Shown here one piece after another: positions 15,053 through 33,576 of a DNA stretch of 64,000 bases. Under the pieces are notes generated by a model. That model made no database searches. It saw only the letters and a program-made list of their open reading frames with translations, and was not told where the DNA came from. Both the position numbers and the translations under genes were made by a program. The stretch lies in assembly GCF_001677475.2 (NCBI RefSeq), contig NZ_CP015229.1; one strand, given 5' to 3'. This stretch comes from Escherichia coli. Its GTDB lineage: Bacteria; Pseudomonadota; Gammaproteobacteria; Enterobacterales; Enterobacteriaceae. Every line of letters starts with the position of its first letter. Position 1 is the stretch's first letter.

Positions 15053-16054
15053 TTGCCTGCGCGTTTAAGCCAGCCTCGTATCAGGGGGCTGGTTTAGGCG
15101 TTTTGAATCAACGGGTTCCATGGTGTTGTTCATTTAATCACTGTTTTAGTATCAATTTTCAATAGTATCCTTTCATAGGACTACTCTGGATGCGTTCACC
15201 TTCATTGTCGCTCTAAGCAACTAGATCCTCAGAAATCTCCAGTTAGGTTGCATCCTTCCTTACACACTTTCCTGAAACTTCAGGGTAAGGTGAGAAAGCC
15301 GCCATCACTTTTTCTTATTCCAGCATCTAAATAAATTCCGAATTTTGCTATTAATATCGCTACCGCAATAAAAACAGATAGTAAAGAGAGTAATATATAC
15401 TTTAGTGATATGTTAAGAATAATTGATTGTTAACATATCTAATGGGATAAGATGTGTTTCTGTTAATGAAAATATTCAAGATTTATAGTTGATAATTAAA
15501 ATACACTCGATATCTCAGCCCTTTCTATGCAAGATGCAATTTTATAAGCTGTCCATTTTTTATATGGAGGCGGTAGCGTGTTTGTTACTCGTGATTTTAT
15601 TGGTATGGTGAATATGTTGGGATTGTTAAATACATAACGGCATATCAGTTCCGGTCATTGTAAATATGGGTAATTGCTTAATGTTATTAGTGATTACCGT
15701 TTGAAAGATAAAGAGTGCTGTAAAGCGGTGATAGACATTACATTCATGATTAAAAAACAGAACCTGTCAATAAATAATTCATTTATTAAAAAGGACGACT
15801 TCTATTATGACGGAATATTATCTCAATGAGACGGTTTGCAAATACAGAGCCAGTTTCTCCGGGGTAACGAGCAGGTGTACCAGTGTCAGGTGGCATTTGT
15901 ATTGCCGGGTGAGCGGGTCATGATGGCCTTCACCTACGCCCGAACCACACCGCTGACCCCGGCAGATATGACGCGCTGGGCTGAAATTAAAAAGAATCTG
16001 CGCTTCAGGATGCGGCAGGAAGCCGGGACGAATTAATCACACAGGGAACGGGAC

Positions 16055-19000
16055 ATGGAAGAGGCATTCTGGGCGGCAAGGCAGGGTGATGCCCTGCTGC
16101 ATACGTCGTTTATGGCAGATGTGCTGGGGGCAGTTGTAGAGGTTGCCGCCACAGCCCTGGTGGATGTTCTGGTTGTCGGAACCATGGCGGCGCTGGGCGG
16201 AGTTGAAGTGGCAACGCTGGGCTGCTCAACCATTTTAGCGATCGGTATAGCAACAGCGGTATTTATGTCGTATCAGGGCTGGAATGACCGAATCAGTAGG
16301 GAAAGTGAGCAACTGGCGAACTGGCTTTTCCCGCCTCAGATTGAAGGTTACATCCTCACCGGCTCTGGCGACACATGGATCAACAGCAAACCTGCCGCGC
16401 GGGCCGCGGCGACTGCGGCATCGCGGCAGGACATTGAGGCGCAGGAGGCGCAGGCGAAGGCGGAACAGGAAGAAGCGCAGCGTCAGGAGGATGCCAGAAC
16501 GTTCCTGGATGTGGCCGGGGAATATCTGGAAATGGCGGGGGCCATAGCCCTGGCGGTTAACCCGGTGACAGGGCCTGTGCTGATGTCCCGGGCGCTGCAC
16601 GACCAGCTCAGTACGGAAGAAGGGCGTTCTGAAATGGTGGATGGCGTGACACATTTTGTGTCGGAACTATGGCAGCCCACCGTGGCCAGTGCGGCCCCGG
16701 GCTCCACCCCGACCCCTGACGATAAAATCGACTGCCATAAACATCCCTCCTCACTGACGCAGTTTCTCGCACAAAAAAAAGCCGCCTTTCTGGATGACCC
16801 CCTGGGAACGGCCCTTAACCTGCTGAGTCCGGGCGGTATGCTGGAAACCGCCTTTCAGGGAGTGAATGCGGTTATTGGCAGCATCAGTAATCTGTTCAAA
16901 GGCGATGATGAACCGCCCGCAGCGGAATATATCGCGGAAGGCGCGCGGGATGTGCGTATCAACAGCCAGCCGGCGGCACGCAGCGGGGCACGCTGCACCT
17001 GCGAGGCCAGGGTGGTGAATGAGCCGGGGAACGGGGCGTTTGTGTCACCGGATGTCCGCATTGGCGGTCCGTTACTGGTGGTCAGGGATATCAGAAGCGG
17101 CAGGTCGCAGATAACCCTGGTGGCAACCGTGGCGCTGATGTTTCTTCGCCCGGGCAAAATGCTTTCTAAAATCGCCTGTTTTGCTGCCAGTGTCGGGATG
17201 GGGGTGATGACGCAGAAGGCCATCAGTGCCCTTCCGCATCCGGTCAATGCCGCCACCGGAGCCAAATATCTGGCCGATGACGATGATTTTGACTTCAGTC
17301 TGCCGGGCCACTTTCCGCTGGACTGGCAGCGCGTGTACAGCAGTCGTGACGACCGCACGGAAGGGATGTTCGGGCAGGGCTGGAGTGTAATGTATGAAGT
17401 CAGCCTCGAGCGCACGCCGGGTACTGCTGACGAAAACTGTATGACCTTTGTGTCGGGCATGGGACGACGTCTGGATATGGAGGCCGTGCTGCCGGGGAGC
17501 GGGTTTTACAGCCCCGGCGAAGGACTGGCAGTACGGCGGGGTGAGCAGGGGCACTGGCTTATCAGCAGCGATGACGGGCAGTTTTTTCTGTTTGAGGCCG
17601 ACCCGCGTCACCCGCAGCGCCAGCGGCTGAAAATGCTGGGCGACCGCAACAGCAACTGTCTGAATCTGTACTACGACGAGCTGGGGCGCATCACGCAAAT
17701 CAGCGGTGAACAGCAGCGTCCGTGCATCCGTCTGCATTATGAACTGGCGGCGCATCCCCGGCGGGTGACACAGATTTATCAGCATTTCCCTGAGATGGCT
17801 CCTTTACTGCTGCGTCGTTACCGCTATGACGAGGCCGGCGACCTGAACGGCGTGTACGACAGCACGGGGCACCTGCTGCGCGAGTTTGCTTACGACGAAA
17901 ACCACTGCATGACCCTGCACCGCCAGCCGGGCGGCGAAGGGTATTATTACCAGTGGGGCTGGTATGAAGGCCCGGATGACGCAGCGTGGCGGGTGACGGG
18001 GCACCACACGGACAGCGGTGAACAGTACCGGCTGGCGTGGAGCCTGGCGGCACGCAGGCTGTGCGTGACGGACGGGCTGGGGCGCACGCGTTATCATCAG
18101 TGGGACGCGCAAAATCAGGTGACGGCGTACCAGGACGAAGCCGGGCAGGTGACGACGTTCCGCTGGAGCGACGAAGAACGGCTGTTACTGGGAATGACCG
18201 ATGCGCAGGGCGGCAAATGGCGCTATGTGTATGACCGGCAGGGGCATATCACGGAGACGCACGACCCGCTGGGGCGGGTGGCACAGACACAGTGGCACCC
18301 GGTGTGGCACCAGCCGGAAACGGAGGTGGACGCGGCGGGGAACAGCTGGTGCTGTGAGTACGATGAACGCGGCAATCTTCTTGCGGTGACCGACCCGCTG
18401 CAGCAGAACACCCGGTATCAGTATGACCGCCACGGCCAGGTGGTGCAGATAACGGATGCGCGCGGGGGGAATAAATACCTTCAGTGGAACGAAGACGGGC
18501 AGCTCATGCGGCACACGGACTGTTCCGGCTCGCAGACGGCCTGGTTCTACGACGAACGCACGCGGCTGATACGGATGACAGACGCGCAGAGCCACAGCAC
18601 GCGCTACGGGTATGACGACAGCGGCCACCTGACGGAGGTGATACTGGCGGACGGCCGCACGGTGAATTACCAGTCGGACGCGGCGGGCAGGCTGGTGAAG
18701 TACACCAGCCCGATGGGGAGGATAACGCGCTGGCAGCGGGACGGGCAGGGCCGGGTGCGCAGCCGGACAGACGCGACGGGGCGCAGGACGGCGTTCGGGT
18801 ACGATGCCTACGGGCGTCTGGTCACGCTCACGAACGAGAACGGAGAAAGCTACCGGTTCCGCCATGACGTGCTGGACCGTCTGGCGGAGCAGATAAATCC
18901 GGACGGCTGCCGCCAGACGTACCGCTACAACGCGCTGAACGCGGTCACGGAAGTGGTGTTCACCGGGGACCGGGGCGGTGAAATCCGCCACCGGCTGGCA

Positions 19001-20737
19001 CGTGATGCGGCGGGCCGGCTCACGGCAAAGGAGACAGCCGATGGCCATACGGAATACGTCCATGATGCGGCAGACCAGCTACTGGAAATCCGCCGCCGAC
19101 GGTCGGATGCCGGGGAAACAGACGCACCGGAGATTATCCGTTTCAGTTACGACAGACTGGGGCGGATGCTGACCGAGGAGACGGCGCAGGGCGTCCTGAC
19201 CCATCAGTACGATGAACTCAGCAACCGGACAGCCACCACCTTTCCGGATGGCAGAACGCAGCGTCATCTGTACTACGGCAGCGGCCATCTCCAGCAGATA
19301 AATCTGGACCGGGAGGTCATCAGCGAGTTCACACGTGACGCCCTGCACCGGGAAGTGCTCAGAAGTCAGGGGCGACTGAGCACGCGGCAGCTTTATGACC
19401 CCGCCGGGCGGCTGAAGCGCAGGGAGACATACAGCGGGATGCGCGGGGTGGTACCGGAGACGTTCACGGACCGGCAGTACAGCTACAGCGGCGAGGATGA
19501 ATTGCTGAAGACGCGGCACAGCCGGCGGGGGGAAACGGATTACTTCTACGACCCCACGGGGCGCATCACGGCGTGCCGCTCGGAGGATGAGAGGTATCTG
19601 GCGAGCTGGCAGTACGACGCGGCGGGAAACCTGCTGGGGAGGCGCGCGGGGGAAAGGGCCACGGCAGAAAACAGCGTGGTGCCGTTCAACCGGCTGATGT
19701 CTTACCGTGGTGTGCACTACCGTTATGACGAATTTGGCCGGACGGTGGAAAAGGAGGGCCGGAGCGGCACGCAGAGTTACCGTTATGATGCGGAACACCG
19801 GATGGTGGAAGTGACGACAGCGCGGGGGACATACCGGTATGTGTACGATGCGCTGGGGAGGCGGACGGAAAAACAGCACATCAGCCCTGACGGTAAACCG
19901 TACAACCGGACGACATTTTTATGGGACGGAATGCGGCTGGCGCAGGAGAGCAGGCCGGAGGGAATAAGCAGCCTGTATATCTACAGCGACCCGGGGAGTT
20001 ATGAACCGCTGGCGCGGGTGGATAAGGCGGGCAAAGAGGGCCCGAACCGGATACTGTATTTTCACACGGATGTGAACGGTGCGCCGGAAGAGATGACGGA
20101 CAGTGACGGGAAAATCGTGTGGGAGACGGGGTATCAGGTCTGGGGTAACACGATACAGGAGAAGGACCACGGCGGGGTGGAGCAGAACCTGCGCTACCAG
20201 GGACAGTACCTCGACAGGGAAACGGGGCTGCATTACAATCTGCACAGGTACTATGATCCGGATGTCGGGCGGTTCATGGTAACGGACCCGATAGGGCTGG
20301 CGGGGGGACTGAATCTTTACCAATACTCACCGAATCCAATAAGTTGGATCGACCCGCTGGGATTAACAGGGGAGTGGGTTAATCCCAAAGATATTAATTT
20401 TTCTCAAAGAACAATATCACCTCATGATTATGCCGATATTATGCGTAATGGTGGTTGGGATTGGGACAGGTCTCCATTAAGAGTAATTGATATTGATGGG
20501 CAATTAGTTTCTTATGATAATAGGCGATTAGACGCAGCTCTAGAGGCCGGATTAGATAAGGTTAAAGTCATTAGAGTTGACCCTAATGCTCCTCATCCTG
20601 ACTCATCTACTGGAAAAACATGGTTACAAAAATTCCGAGAGAGATTTAGAGATCGAAGAAATATAAAGGCCGGTGGAATAGTACCAGATAAAGGATTAAA
20701 TTCTCGACCGGAAAGAACATCAAGAGGTTGCAAATGA
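16055..20737 (+). CDS. Rhs-family polymorphic toxin: prePAAR motif, hydrophobic segments, PAAR-like motifs, YD-repeat core, C-terminal toxin (about 20363..20734)
   Basis: 1560-aa ORF; N-terminus AARQGDALLH (AARxxDxxxH) then hydrophobic stretch, INSKPAAR and INSQPAAR motifs, second hydrophobic stretch; many YD repeats; core ends [40 protein letters not shown] followed by a 124-aa variable tail. Confidence 0.9.
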   Translation: MEEAFWAARQGDALLHTSFMADVLGAVVEVAATALVDVLVVGTMAALGGVEVATLGCSTILAIGIATAVFMSYQGWNDRISRESEQLANWLFPPQIEGYILTGSGDTWINSKPAARAAATAASRQDIEAQEAQAKAEQEEAQRQEDARTFLDVAGEYLEMAGAIALAVNPVTGPVLMSRALHDQLSTEEGRSEMVDGVTHFVSELWQPTVASAAPGSTPTPDDKIDCHKHPSSLTQFLAQKKAAFLDDPLGTALNLLSPGGMLETAFQGVNAVIGSISNLFKGDDEPPAAEYIAEGARDVRINSQPAARSGARCTCEARVVNEPGNGAFVSPDVRIGGPLLVVRDIRSGRSQITLVATVALMFLRPGKMLSKIACFAASVGMGVMTQKAISALPHPVNAATGAKYLADDDDFDFSLPGHFPLDWQRVYSSRDDRTEGMFGQGWSVMYEVSLERTPGTADENCMTFVSGMGRRLDMEAVLPGSGFYSPGEGLAVRRGEQGHWLISSDDGQFFLFEADPRHPQRQRLKMLGDRNSNCLNLYYDELGRITQISGEQQRPCIRLHYELAAHPRRVTQIYQHFPEMAPLLLRRYRYDEAGDLNGVYDSTGHLLREFAYDENHCMTLHRQPGGEGYYYQWGWYEGPDDAAWRVTGHHTDSGEQYRLAWSLAARRLCVTDGLGRTRYHQWDAQNQVTAYQDEAGQVTTFRWSDEERLLLGMTDAQGGKWRYVYDRQGHITETHDPLGRVAQTQWHPVWHQPETEVDAAGNSWCCEYDERGNLLAVTDPLQQNTRYQYDRHGQVVQITDARGGNKYLQWNEDGQLMRHTDCSGSQTAWFYDERTRLIRMTDAQSHSTRYGYDDSGHLTEVILADGRTVNYQSDAAGRLVKYTSPMGRITRWQRDGQGRVRSRTDATGRRTAFGYDAYGRLVTLTNENGESYRFRHDVLDRLAEQINPDGCRQTYRYNALNAVTEVVFTGDRGGEIRHRLARDAAGRLTAKETADGHTEYVHDAADQLLEIRRRRSDAGETDAPEIIRFSYDRLGRMLTEETAQGVLTHQYDELSNRTATTFPDGRTQRHLYYGSGHLQQINLDREVISEFTRDALHREVLRSQGRLSTRQLYDPAGRLKRRETYSGMRGVVPETFTDRQYSYSGEDELLKTRHSRRGETDYFYDPTGRITACRSEDERYLASWQYDAAGNLLGRRAGERATAENSVVPFNRLMSYRGVHYRYDEFGRTVEKEGRSGTQSYRYDAEHRMVEVTTARGTYRYVYDALGRRTEKQHISPDGKPYNRTTFLWDGMRLAQESRPEGISSLYIYSDPGSYEPLARVDKAGKEGPNRILYFHTDVNGAPEEMTDSDGKIVWETGYQVWGNTIQEKDHGGVEQNLRYQGQYLDRETGLHYNLHRYYDPDVGRFMVTDPIGLAGGLNLYQYSPNPISWIDPLGLTGEWVNPKDINFSQRTISPHDYADIMRNGGWDWDRSPLRVIDIDGQLVSYDNRRLDAALEAGLDKVKVIRVDPNAPHPDSSTGKTWLQKFRERFRDRRNIKAGGIVPDKGLNSRPERTSRGCK

Positions 20738-21168
20738 AAAATATTATTCAGTTATGGGAAGATGGTTTATTACCGATAAAAGATGCTATTTACTTTTCTA
20801 ACGGTGAATCTTTCCTTTGTAAAATAACATCTTACCCTACTCCTTGTATTGAGAAAAATGGTGAGTTTGATTTCTCTGCCTTTTATGAAAAAAATAAAGA
20901 TGAAGTTACTGATATTGATAAGTCTAGAGAAGTTAAATTAGCGAATAATTGCTATTGTTGCATTGGAGAAGGTAGTTATGGTTCTGAAGGATTTATCGCA
21001 TATCTCGATGAAAATAAAAACTTAGTTTGGGTTCTTTATTCCGAAGAATCTAATCCATTTATTAATATAACTGAATATACATCTGATATTATTATAGTAG
21101 AATCAAGTTCTAATATTAGACTAAGAATAAATATAAACAATCCAGTGGATTTAGAATTGGCATTTTAA
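20734..21168 (+). CDS. putative Rhs immunity protein for the main C-terminal toxin (144 aa)
   Basis: ATG overlaps the rhs stop (ATGA); sharp drop in GC relative to the rhs core; position immediately after the toxin; no recognisable domain. Confidence 0.7.
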   Translation: MKNIIQLWEDGLLPIKDAIYFSNGESFLCKITSYPTPCIEKNGEFDFSAFYEKNKDEVTDIDKSREVKLANNCYCCIGEGSYGSEGFIAYLDENKNLVWVLYSEESNPFINITEYTSDIIIVESSSNIRLRININNPVDLELAF

Positions 21169-21171
21169 ATA

Positions 21172-21208
21172 AAAAGCCGGGTGAAATTAAATCTTCCCGG
21201 CTTTTTTA
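21172..21208. terminator. intrinsic terminator closing cassette 1 (repeat-family hairpin)
   Basis: AAGCCGGG…CCCGGCTTTTTTATT; the same hairpin recurs after each immunity gene at about 25.8, 28.4 and 30.8 kb. Confidence 0.7.
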
Positions 21209-21212
21209 TTAT

Positions 21213-21542
21213 TTAACTCTCGTTCAGCACACTAAACATCCCGTTCCGCATCCCCTTAACCACCTGTTTAACCTGATAAAGTTCTTCCCGCAGCTCCTGC
21301 ACCTCGTCACTGTCAGCGATGATGGTCAGGTACCCCTCCGAAATCTTCACCGTGACACCCCGCCCGGTATCAAATCCCGCCTCAGCCAGCCAGTCGCCCT
21401 TGAGGTGCAGGCTGGGATGTTGTGAATAATACCGGGCTATACCTGTTGTGCGGTCCTGGTGGCGGGTTCTGACATAGCCGACTTTATAGCGGCGCTGGGT
21501 TTTGGAAATGGTGACTTCTGGCGTAATATCGTGTTCAGCCAT
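21213..21542 (-). CDS. SymE-family protein (type I toxin-like, AbrB/SpoVT fold), full length 109 aa
   Basis: …LHLKGDWLAEAGFDTGRGVTVKISEGYLTIIAD… aligns with my recollection of E. coli SymE (…[33 protein letters not shown]…); ATG start. Confidence 0.7.
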   Translation of the reverse strand: MAEHDITPEVTISKTQRRYKVGYVRTRHQDRTTGIARYYSQHPSLHLKGDWLAEAGFDTGRGVTVKISEGYLTIIADSDEVQELREELYQVKQVVKGMRNGMFSVLNES

Positions 21543-32597: not shown

Positions 32598-33576
32598 CAG
32601 GGAAAGATCACGTAACGCTACTTTTTTGTACTAAATAATTGGCATTTTATGTTTAAAAATTGAGATATTCCTCATTACCTAAAGCTGTTTTTTTATTGCT
32701 TATACATGATCAAGTACTCCTTACATAATTAAGGAGAACAAAATGGAACTTAAAAAATTGATGGAACATATTTCTATTATTCCCGATTACAGACAAGCCT
32801 GGAAAGTGGAGCATAAATTGTCAGATATTCTACTGTTGACTATTTGTGCCGTTATTTCTGGTGCAGAAGGTTGGGAAGGTATAGAGGATTTTGGGGAAAC
32901 ACATCTCGATTTTTTGAAGCAATATGGTGATTTTGAAAATGGTATTCCTGTTCACGATACTATTGCCAGAGTTGTATCCTGTATCAGTCCTGCAAAATTT
33001 CATGAGTGCTTTATTAACTGGATGCAAGATTGCCATACTTCAGATGATAAAGACGTCATCGCAATTGATGGAAAAACACTTCGGCATTCTTATGACAAGC
33101 GTCGCCGCAAGGGAGCGATTCATGTCATTAGTGCGTTCTCAACAATGCACAGTCTGGTCATCGGACAGCTCAAGACGGATGAGAAATCTAATGAGATTAC
33201 AGCTATCCCTGAACTTCTTAACATGTTGGATATTAAAGGAAAAATTATCACAACTGATGCGATGGGTTGCCAGAAAGATATCGCAGAGAAGATACAAAAA
33301 CAGGGCGGTGATTATTTATTCGCTGTAAAAGGAAATCAGGGGCGGCTTAATAAAGCCTTTGAGGAAAAATTTCCACTGAAAGAATTAAATAATCCAGAGC
33401 ATGACAGTTACGCAATGAGTGAAAAGAGTCACGGCAGAGAAGAAATCCGTCTTCATATTGTTTGCGATGTCCCTGATGAACTTATTGATTTTACGTTTGA
33501 ATCGAAAGGGCAGCTATGGACAGAAACTACCTGACGTCAGTCCTTGCGGGGAGCGGGCTTTCGTAATCTTGCCCTG
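32598..33576 (+). mobile_element. H-repeat (ISAs1-family) element, copy 2, internally deleted (about 0.3 kb missing), no target duplication
   Basis: Same termini as copy 1 (CAGGGAAAGATCACG…CGTAATCTTGCCCTG); transposase ORF jumps from …FTFE to the element's final about 15 codons; flanks differ. Confidence 0.7.
32743..33534 (+). pseudogene. ybfD: H-repeat-associated transposase, truncated (263 aa; YbfD-like)
   Basis: N-terminal 250 aa about 95% identical to the copy at 26521; C-terminus replaced by [10 protein letters not shown] through the internal deletion; sits next to ybgA as ybfD does in K-12. Confidence 0.6.

Follow-up and report, generated by a model that had tools for sequence, protein, structure and literature searches.

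What activity is carried at the C-terminal end of a large Rhs protein whose tip matches no family of Pfam or NCBIfam, and is the AT-rich open reading frame (ORF) that overlaps this end the matching antidote? Both questions are raised by a locus in a 64,000-nucleotide stretch of Escherichia coli DNA (contig NZ_CP015229.1 of assembly GCF_001677475.2; the whole stretch is called the window below). A preliminary description, made from the sequence alone, likened the tip to ParB/sulfiredoxin-fold domains and took the product of the overlapping ORF for the cognate immunity protein. The reading that we prefer, with a probability of roughly 0.6 for the whole of it, is an antibacterial toxin domain of the ParB/sulfiredoxin (Srx) fold, likely belonging to the Tox-ParBL1 family and dependent on nucleoside triphosphates (NTP), accompanied by an immunity protein that resembles propeller blades. 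We are highly confident in the fold and in the toxin–immunity role, and put an NTP-dependent mechanism, argued by analogy, at about even odds. The module has the ordinary architecture of an Rhs toxin–immunity unit, with a tip in a predicted ParB-fold toxin family and an immunity protein of an uncatalogued one.

With kdpFABC-ybfA on one side and the ybgA-phrB part of the chromosome on the other, the locus occupies the rhsC position of E. coli, and the kdpA-ybfA segment has a best identity of 97.9% to complete E. coli genomes. The full-length Rhs effector gene (16055..20737, plus strand, 1560 amino acids [aa]), delineated from the ORF list, motif positions and NCBIfam matches, encodes near the N-terminus, at aa 7-16, the sequence AARQGDALLH, a motif of the prePAAR type, and then come hydrophobic helices and a weak match to PAAR. 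The NCBIfam scan of aa 1-500 yielded RHS_core and T6SS_PAAR_dom, the latter weakly (E 6.8e-5). The AARxxDxxxH motif is said to define the class of prePAAR effectors. With a PAAR region, a YD-repeat shell and an RHS-associated core ending in DPLGL, the protein has the features of a prePAAR Rhs effector of a type VI secretion system (T6SS), and the annotation of its homologue in E. coli A34 reads RHS repeat-associated core protein. The DPLGL sequence (20351..20365, plus strand, aa 1433-1437) is the conserved end of the Rhs core, belonging to the PxxxxDPxGL autoproteolysis motif, and the TIGR03696 (Rhs_assc_core) match stops here; therefore, the variable tip comprises aa 1438-1560 (20366..20734, plus strand, 123 aa). 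The core has a GC content of 0.615, against 0.387 for the tip and 0.278 for the downstream ORF, the drop beginning at DPLGL. This agrees with the domain start of 20363 and the residues about 1437-1560 given in the preliminary description, and the peptide quoted there, RVIDIDGQLVSYDNRRLDAALEAGLDKVKVIRVD, is found exactly at aa 1476-1509 (20480-20581). Residues of the tip are numbered below from its own first position.

Single-sequence searches of Pfam and NCBIfam and a phmmer search of PDB with the tip gave noise only (Ntox47 over the end of the Rhs core, levansucrase, and the major histocompatibility complex), and the family profile run against PDB sequences retrieved SETMAR and gastrodianin, both of them chance matches to the word YDNRR. 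Comparison of profiles gave a different result. Aligned by hhalign with a reference alignment of 121 Spo0J-type ParB N-domains, all of them PF02195-positive, the toxin family profile obtained a probability of 82.5%, P 9.8e-6 and a score of 35.9; 150 column shuffles scored 11.5 +/- 2.2 (maximum 20.2) and the reversed alignment 12.2, so that the real score is about 11 standard deviations above the shuffles. Global-mode hhalign produced a meaningless alignment. The confident core places the toxin segment PLRVIDIDGQLVSYDNRRLDAALEAGLDKVKVIRVD on its ParB counterpart, with Y-D-N-R-R-L-x-A-A-x-x-A-G-L within the aligned core, and therefore D-N-R-R sits on G-E-R-R of ParB Box II. The same core bears out the motif parallel drawn from the letters alone, in which RR-x-x-A-A-x-x-A-G-L was matched with the ParB N-terminal motif.

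Two short motifs stand out in the tip. The D-N-R-R motif (20516..20527, plus strand, aa 1488-1491), the probable counterpart of the Box II G-E-R-R with its phosphate-binding GxxR P-motif, is situated at the N-terminus of helix 52-60, in agreement with the alignment of D51-N52-R53-R54 with G-E-R-R, as the model helix starts at residue 52. The INFSQR motif (20393..20410, plus strand, aa 1447-1452), containing a family-specific Ser/Thr-Gln, lies just before the first helix at approximately the site of ParB Box I, in a low-confidence part of the alignment. Among 98 near-full-length representatives clustered at 50% identity, both arginines of D-N-R-R are kept (R53 in 95%, with Thr in 3%; R54 in 100%), N52 is present in 99%, and the Gly of G-E-R-R is replaced by Asp (D51) in 98%; S13 is conserved in 90% (Thr in 5%), Q14 and G45 in 94% each, L55, A57 and A58 in 93-94%, and R93 in 91%. 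In 31 close homologues, N11, S13, Q14 and R15 are invariant. The residues of the S-Q and D-N-R-R motifs are under purifying selection.

The three-dimensional similarity of the toxin domain to solved members of the ParB/Srx group points the same way. Taking one value per solved structure, the matches are Atu1540 (2hwj, 7.7), Arabidopsis sulfiredoxin (6ky4, 7.4), KorB (8qa8, 6.8), SbnI (5ujd, 6.7), PadC (6ryk, 6.5), the free serine kinase SerK (5x0b, 6.4), human sulfiredoxin (1yzs, 5.6), pNOB8 ParB (5k5d, 5.2) and Spo0J (1vz0, 4.1), with BrxU and Osa further down the list. The best solved matches thus include enzymes and switches that use ATP or CTP, namely, Srx, SerK, SbnI, KorB and PadC. Foldseek against AFDB50 returned Salmonella Rhs tips 98% identical to the toxin tip, remoter relatives bearing the UniProt name “ParB/Sulfiredoxin domain-containing protein,” and eukaryotic matches in a rotifer, Noctiluca and Picea. 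Taken together, the hhalign score far above the shuffles and the matches to solved ParB/Srx structures support the proposed fold, and no confident assignment to another toxin family emerged.

The homologues delimit a family larger than this locus. The tip has 58 homologues in the 90%-clustered database, and at 50% identity the family numbers 761 representatives with E<=1e-3, 71 of them with E<=1e-30. The domain lies C-terminal to RHS, HINT and other long carriers in Proteobacteria, Actinobacteria, Firmicutes, Bacteroidetes and Verrucomicrobia, the contexts being RHS, PT-HINT, intein-like/HINT and carriers of 1900-2500 aa. Three proteins deviate from this pattern: P0207, which has a signal peptide, carries the domain three times in tandem, RFSQRS and DNTR being its variant motifs; in P0162 a single copy sits in the middle of the protein, upstream of its subtilisin-like protease region; and P0233 (3255 aa) contains an internal one, whose motifs read FTQRS and LDNRR.

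Such a family was predicted by Zhang, de Souza, Anantharaman, Iyer and Aravind (2012, Biol Direct 7:18), who defined Tox-ParBL1 with Neisseria gonorrhoeae NGK_2271 as the reference, predicted a ParB fold for it, and linked it to ParB via HHpred only (93% to 1vz0). Its published signature consists of an N-terminal [ST], absent in classical ParB, and of [NT][RT][RT], mostly R, which is the equivalent of DGHHR in Tox-ParB; the carriers listed are RHS, filamentous, HINT, LXG/WXG and MafB proteins, and there are eukaryotic relatives (Zhang et al., 2012). All of the published features that we checked are present in the tip: the link to ParB through profiles only, the [ST], the N-R-R motif, the position in the carrier, and the eukaryotic relatives. 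The tip is thus a probable Tox-ParBL1 member, as judged on the published family description. When species-representative genomes were scanned for a single narrow pattern, the peptide V[ST]YDNRRL[DLM], close relatives alone came up and no Neisseria locus.

The second question concerns the overlapping ORF (20734..21168, plus strand, 144 aa). Its ATG at 20734 overlaps the rhs stop within ATGA, and a Shine-Dalgarno-like AAGAGG (20722..20727, plus strand) lies 6 nucleotides 5' of this ATG, inside the end of rhs. The product is 100% identical to an E. coli database entry of 144 aa (P0059) and has 53 homologues, conserved in GEGSYGSEGF...W..Y.E.SNPF; the model, at pLDDT 95, is all-beta with propeller-like blades. 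The protein had no Pfam match even at E<=10 and no NCBIfam match, and its family profile matched none of the PDB sequences. The homologues, the confident model and the conserved synteny rule out a chance ORF.

By HMM searches, in each of the 32 toxin loci, drawn from five phyla, the gene directly 3' of the toxin domain and on its strand encodes a homologue of the immunity protein. The loci are 28 from the scan of species-representative genomes, plus the loci of E. coli A34, Ruminococcus, Streptomyces and Gilliamella; the scan loci, all 28 of which show the arrangement, include Snodgrassella, Pantoea, Serratia, Saccharothrix, Amycolatopsis, Streptomyces, Kutzneria and Lysinibacillus, and also Caulobacteraceae, Limisphaerales, Bacteroides, Flavobacterium, Capnocytophaga and Bacillota. 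The linkage of the toxin and immunity genes is invariant. Orphan immunity copies, with no toxin, occur in two Gilliamella loci (L002 and L003, 1-7300) among Imm8 and ComJ genes. Adjacency in all 32 loci and orphan copies inside immunity-gene islands uphold the earlier proposal that the 144-aa ORF encodes the cognate immunity protein. The Gilliamella islands also hold genes for DUF2750 and Cys_rich_CPCC proteins, making a heterogeneous polyimmunity locus, and in Streptomyces sp. 2131.1 (L020, 3375-4394) one toxin tip is followed by two tandem immunity paralogues. The partners have opposite charges, with pI 9.66 for the toxin versus 4.31 for the immunity protein (family medians, 9.3 versus 4.6).

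How such a module would work can be suggested from its relatives, and here we infer the toxicity, nucleotide binding, chemistry and cellular target of the tip. In Rhs/T6SS families, the toxin is encapsulated in the YD shell, autoproteolysis occurs after DPxGL, and delivery to the target cytoplasm is mediated by PAAR. Likewise, the toxin domain would be held in the YD-repeat shell of the present protein, be freed by cleavage after DPLGL, and be delivered by the T6SS into the cytoplasm of a neighbouring cell, a route suggested by the prePAAR motif, the PAAR region and the N-terminal transmembrane helices. Once there, the D-N-R-R motif and the conserved S-Q-R loop would bind a nucleoside triphosphate, and toxicity would result from catalysis that depends on the NTP, by hydrolysis or phosphoryl transfer, rather than from DNA cutting; the producer would be protected by the co-translated acidic 144-aa protein, presumably binding the toxin and occluding its pocket.

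We favour an NTP-dependent enzyme because the Box II arginine or arginines grip nucleotide phosphates in relatives (ParB, KorB, Srx, SerK and ToxB) and because ToxB is an ATPase that does not cleave DNA. Proteins of the ParB-CTPase fold bind CTP, ATP or GTP via the GxxR motif (PMC12704722), and ToxB, a ParB-fold toxin of contact-dependent inhibition (CDI), binds ATP and hydrolyses it, loses its toxicity without the motif arginine, leaves genomic DNA intact and elicits no SOS response (10.64898/2026.05.05.722872). The preliminary description held that ParB-like domains are nucleases or CTP-binding modules; given ToxB, an ATPase that does not cut DNA, a nuclease is not to be assumed.

Several observations weigh against the reading as a whole. 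Neither the query nor any of 31 members scanned singly matched Pfam ParBc (PF02195) or ParBc_2 (PF08857), the per-member scans of the toxin family gave no Pfam family of any kind, and a precomputed ParB Pfam domain is absent from all database homologues; the toxin domain is therefore outside PF02195. PDB sequence searches with the tip gave no real match. Extended at low mact into Box I and Box III, hhalign had near-zero confidence, and neither Box I QPR nor Box III is clearly identifiable; given this and the replaced Gly of Box II, the nucleotide pocket could be remodelled for another ligand. The analogy with ToxB is distant, since ToxB belongs to a separate, PF02195-positive clade with GNHR. 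In the literature, we found no characterised ParB-like toxin of Rhs, T6SS or LXG systems beyond ToxB and no experiment on Tox-ParBL1. Delivery is a further point, since the Rhs protein may lack its chaperone, as discussed below. The remaining points, the opinion of earlier authors and the charges of the two proteins, bear on the nature of the target and are best considered together with the chief alternative.

This alternative is that the toxin is a metal-dependent DNase or other nuclease, whose ParB-like pocket hydrolyses phosphodiester bonds of target DNA or RNA. It was the role favoured by Zhang et al. (2012, Biol Direct 7:18), who reasoned that nucleases dominate among polymorphic toxins and that ParB domains occur in restriction-modification-like nucleases, and a 2025 survey of Rhs proteins calls tips with ParB motifs DNases. 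A basic toxin with an acidic immunity protein also fits a toxin that targets nucleic acids, and so does the cytoplasmic target implied by prePAAR Rhs delivery. However, the historical grounds for the nuclease label of ParB are weak, and ToxB, the sole ParB-fold toxin tested, shows neither cleavage of genomic DNA nor SOS induction. The residues tell the same story: the most conserved ones, N-R-R and S-Q, line up with the phosphate-binding positions of NTP-binding relatives and form no recognisable metal site of a nuclease, and besides D51 there is no conserved cluster of His, Asp or Glu. On balance, we regard a nuclease as less likely, though a serious competitor.

Two features, the Asp in place of Gly in GxxR and the family-specific Ser/Thr-Gln, suggest a chemistry that may differ from that of both an NTPase and a DNase. 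They allow a more specific proposal, namely, that within the ParB/Srx fold ParBL1 is an enzymatic branch of its own, in which the Ser/Thr-Gln loop and the Asp make a new NTP-dependent chemistry, such as phosphorylation or nucleotidylation of a conserved cellular target or formation of a toxic nucleotide, instead of plain hydrolysis of ATP/CTP or DNA cleavage, with an uncatalogued family of incomplete beta-propellers providing immunity. We offer this combination tentatively, its joint probability being low.

A different doubt concerns not the activity of the domain but its use: the locus may no longer be a working weapon in this genome, the toxin–immunity pair being a decaying or an addiction (toxin–antitoxin-like) module that is not delivered. 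Upstream of rhs, at 15807-16036 (ATG at 15807), comparison with the intact 151-aa gene of E. coli A34 reveals the remnant of a gene for an Eag-type (DcrB-related/DUF1795) chaperone, in which the first ~10 codons (MTEYYLNETV) are joined out of frame to the last ~66 and ~225 nucleotides are missing. The remnant has no NCBIfam match, and upstream of rhs there is no intact Eag chaperone gene; because of this internal, out-of-frame deletion, delivery of the Rhs protein is perhaps compromised. Of 5426 complete E. coli genomes, only that of A34 has the same tip and immunity pair (95.6% identity), which is more common in Salmonella. The A34 locus (NZ_CP028741.1, L001 3396-8969) presents the reverse of the window, with eag intact and rhs annotated as frameshifted. 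Moreover, Rhs elements are reported to be able to act as type II toxin–antitoxin modules in Salmonella (PMC7043789). Against decay stands the fully intact state of both the 1560-aa rhs frame and the immunity gene in the window; besides, the objection touches deployment rather than domain identity and is compatible with an NTP-dependent ParB/Srx toxin. We consider it improbable.

The last alternative, a non-catalytic stoichiometric binder that sequesters a nucleotide or binds an essential protein or DNA on a PadC-like scaffold, can draw on PadC, a non-hydrolysing CTP binder, among the structural matches, on the scaffolds and noncatalytic binders listed in a survey of the ParB fold (PMC12704722), and on ToxB, whose turnover is slow (~300 per hour) and whose real mechanism is unresolved (10.64898/2026.05.05.722872), but is very improbable, as the very few effector molecules that arrive upon secretion favour catalysis, and the near-invariant polar residues S13, Q14, D51, N52, R53, R54 and R93 are typical of an active site.

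Downstream of the module, the immunity gene converges with a SymE-like ORF (21213-21542, minus strand; E 4e-11 to NCBIfam endoribonuclease SymE, a match under the curated cut-off), an arrangement annotated at many E. coli Rhs loci. The two share a GC-rich hairpin with A-run and T-run flanks at 21171..21212 (RNA fold of -16.6 kcal/mol, z -3.4 versus shuffles), which looks like a bidirectional intrinsic terminator; a consensus terminator scan missed it because of its long loop. The segment at 21782-24900, with a GC content of 0.59-0.72, is foreign to its AT-rich surroundings and contains a 359-aa ORF that matches no NCBIfam family and a XerC-like tyrosine recombinase seemingly split over two frames (22937-23941 and 23613-24095); it looks like an insertion, because in A34 ybgA directly follows SymE. 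Farther along, at 26521-27654, 28746-30515 and 32743-33531, two ISAs1-family transposase genes, the second apparently truncated, flank an Rhs fragment with YD repeats, an RHS-associated core (aa 394-471) and a ~119-aa tip of its own, presumably an orphan toxin module.

The prediction of ParB-fold toxins dates from 2012, and it was not until 2026 that a clade of them, ToxB, was shown to be ATP-dependent and not a nuclease. Of the other predicted clade, ParBL1, the locus described here is a compact and intact example native to E. coli, whose tip has been missed by recent PF02195-based surveys because it is invisible to Pfam ParBc. Its candidate catalytic residues are clear, and its immunity partner, strictly linked, comes from a family that Pfam and NCBIfam do not list. 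With these handles, one can address whether NTP-dependent killing is general to the fold and what the cellular target is, and correct the automatic “DNase” labels on Rhs tips with ParB motifs.

Finally, the module can be placed among known systems. With Tox-ParBL1 as described, it shares the spread over Proteobacteria, Actinobacteria and Firmicutes and the eukaryotic relatives, and differs in its partner, an uncatalogued all-beta immunity protein instead of the reported Imm-SUKH/Imm44, which are associated with the family rather than defining it. With CdiA-ToxB/iToxB (Kaljevic et al., bioRxiv 10.64898/2026.05.05.722872), it has in common a polymorphic toxin's use of the ParB-CTPase/Srx fold as its C-terminal warhead, the absence of DNA-binding and dimerisation domains, an arginine conserved in the P-motif of Box II, a small immunity gene directly downstream, and enrichment in Enterobacterales. 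In contrast, ToxB is PF02195-positive, has G-N-H-R and is carried on CdiA after the VENN motif (a type V secretion system), whereas the Rhs tip is PF02195-negative, has D-N-R-R together with the S-Q motif and is carried on Rhs after DPxGL (T6SS), so that the tip shows none of the features of the ToxB clade (PF02195, G-N-H-R, and VENN in CdiA). The two immunity proteins look unrelated, and the demonstration of ATP binding and hydrolysis pertains to ToxB alone. With canonical ParB, that is, the N-domain of ParB/Spo0J, and with Srx, SerK and SbnI, the tip shares, column for column, the strand-turn-helix with xxRR followed by A-A-x-x-A-G-L. Compared with canonical ParB, it has no helix-turn-helix, dimerisation domain or ParA-binding motif, has Asp for the Gly of GxxR and no recognisable Box I QPR or Box III, and gains a conserved C-terminal segment, TW..KF..RF.D.RN..GG.VP..GL...P. 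Thus, where the canonical ParB and Srx relatives serve as segregation switches or metabolic enzymes, the Rhs tip is predicted to act as a toxin.

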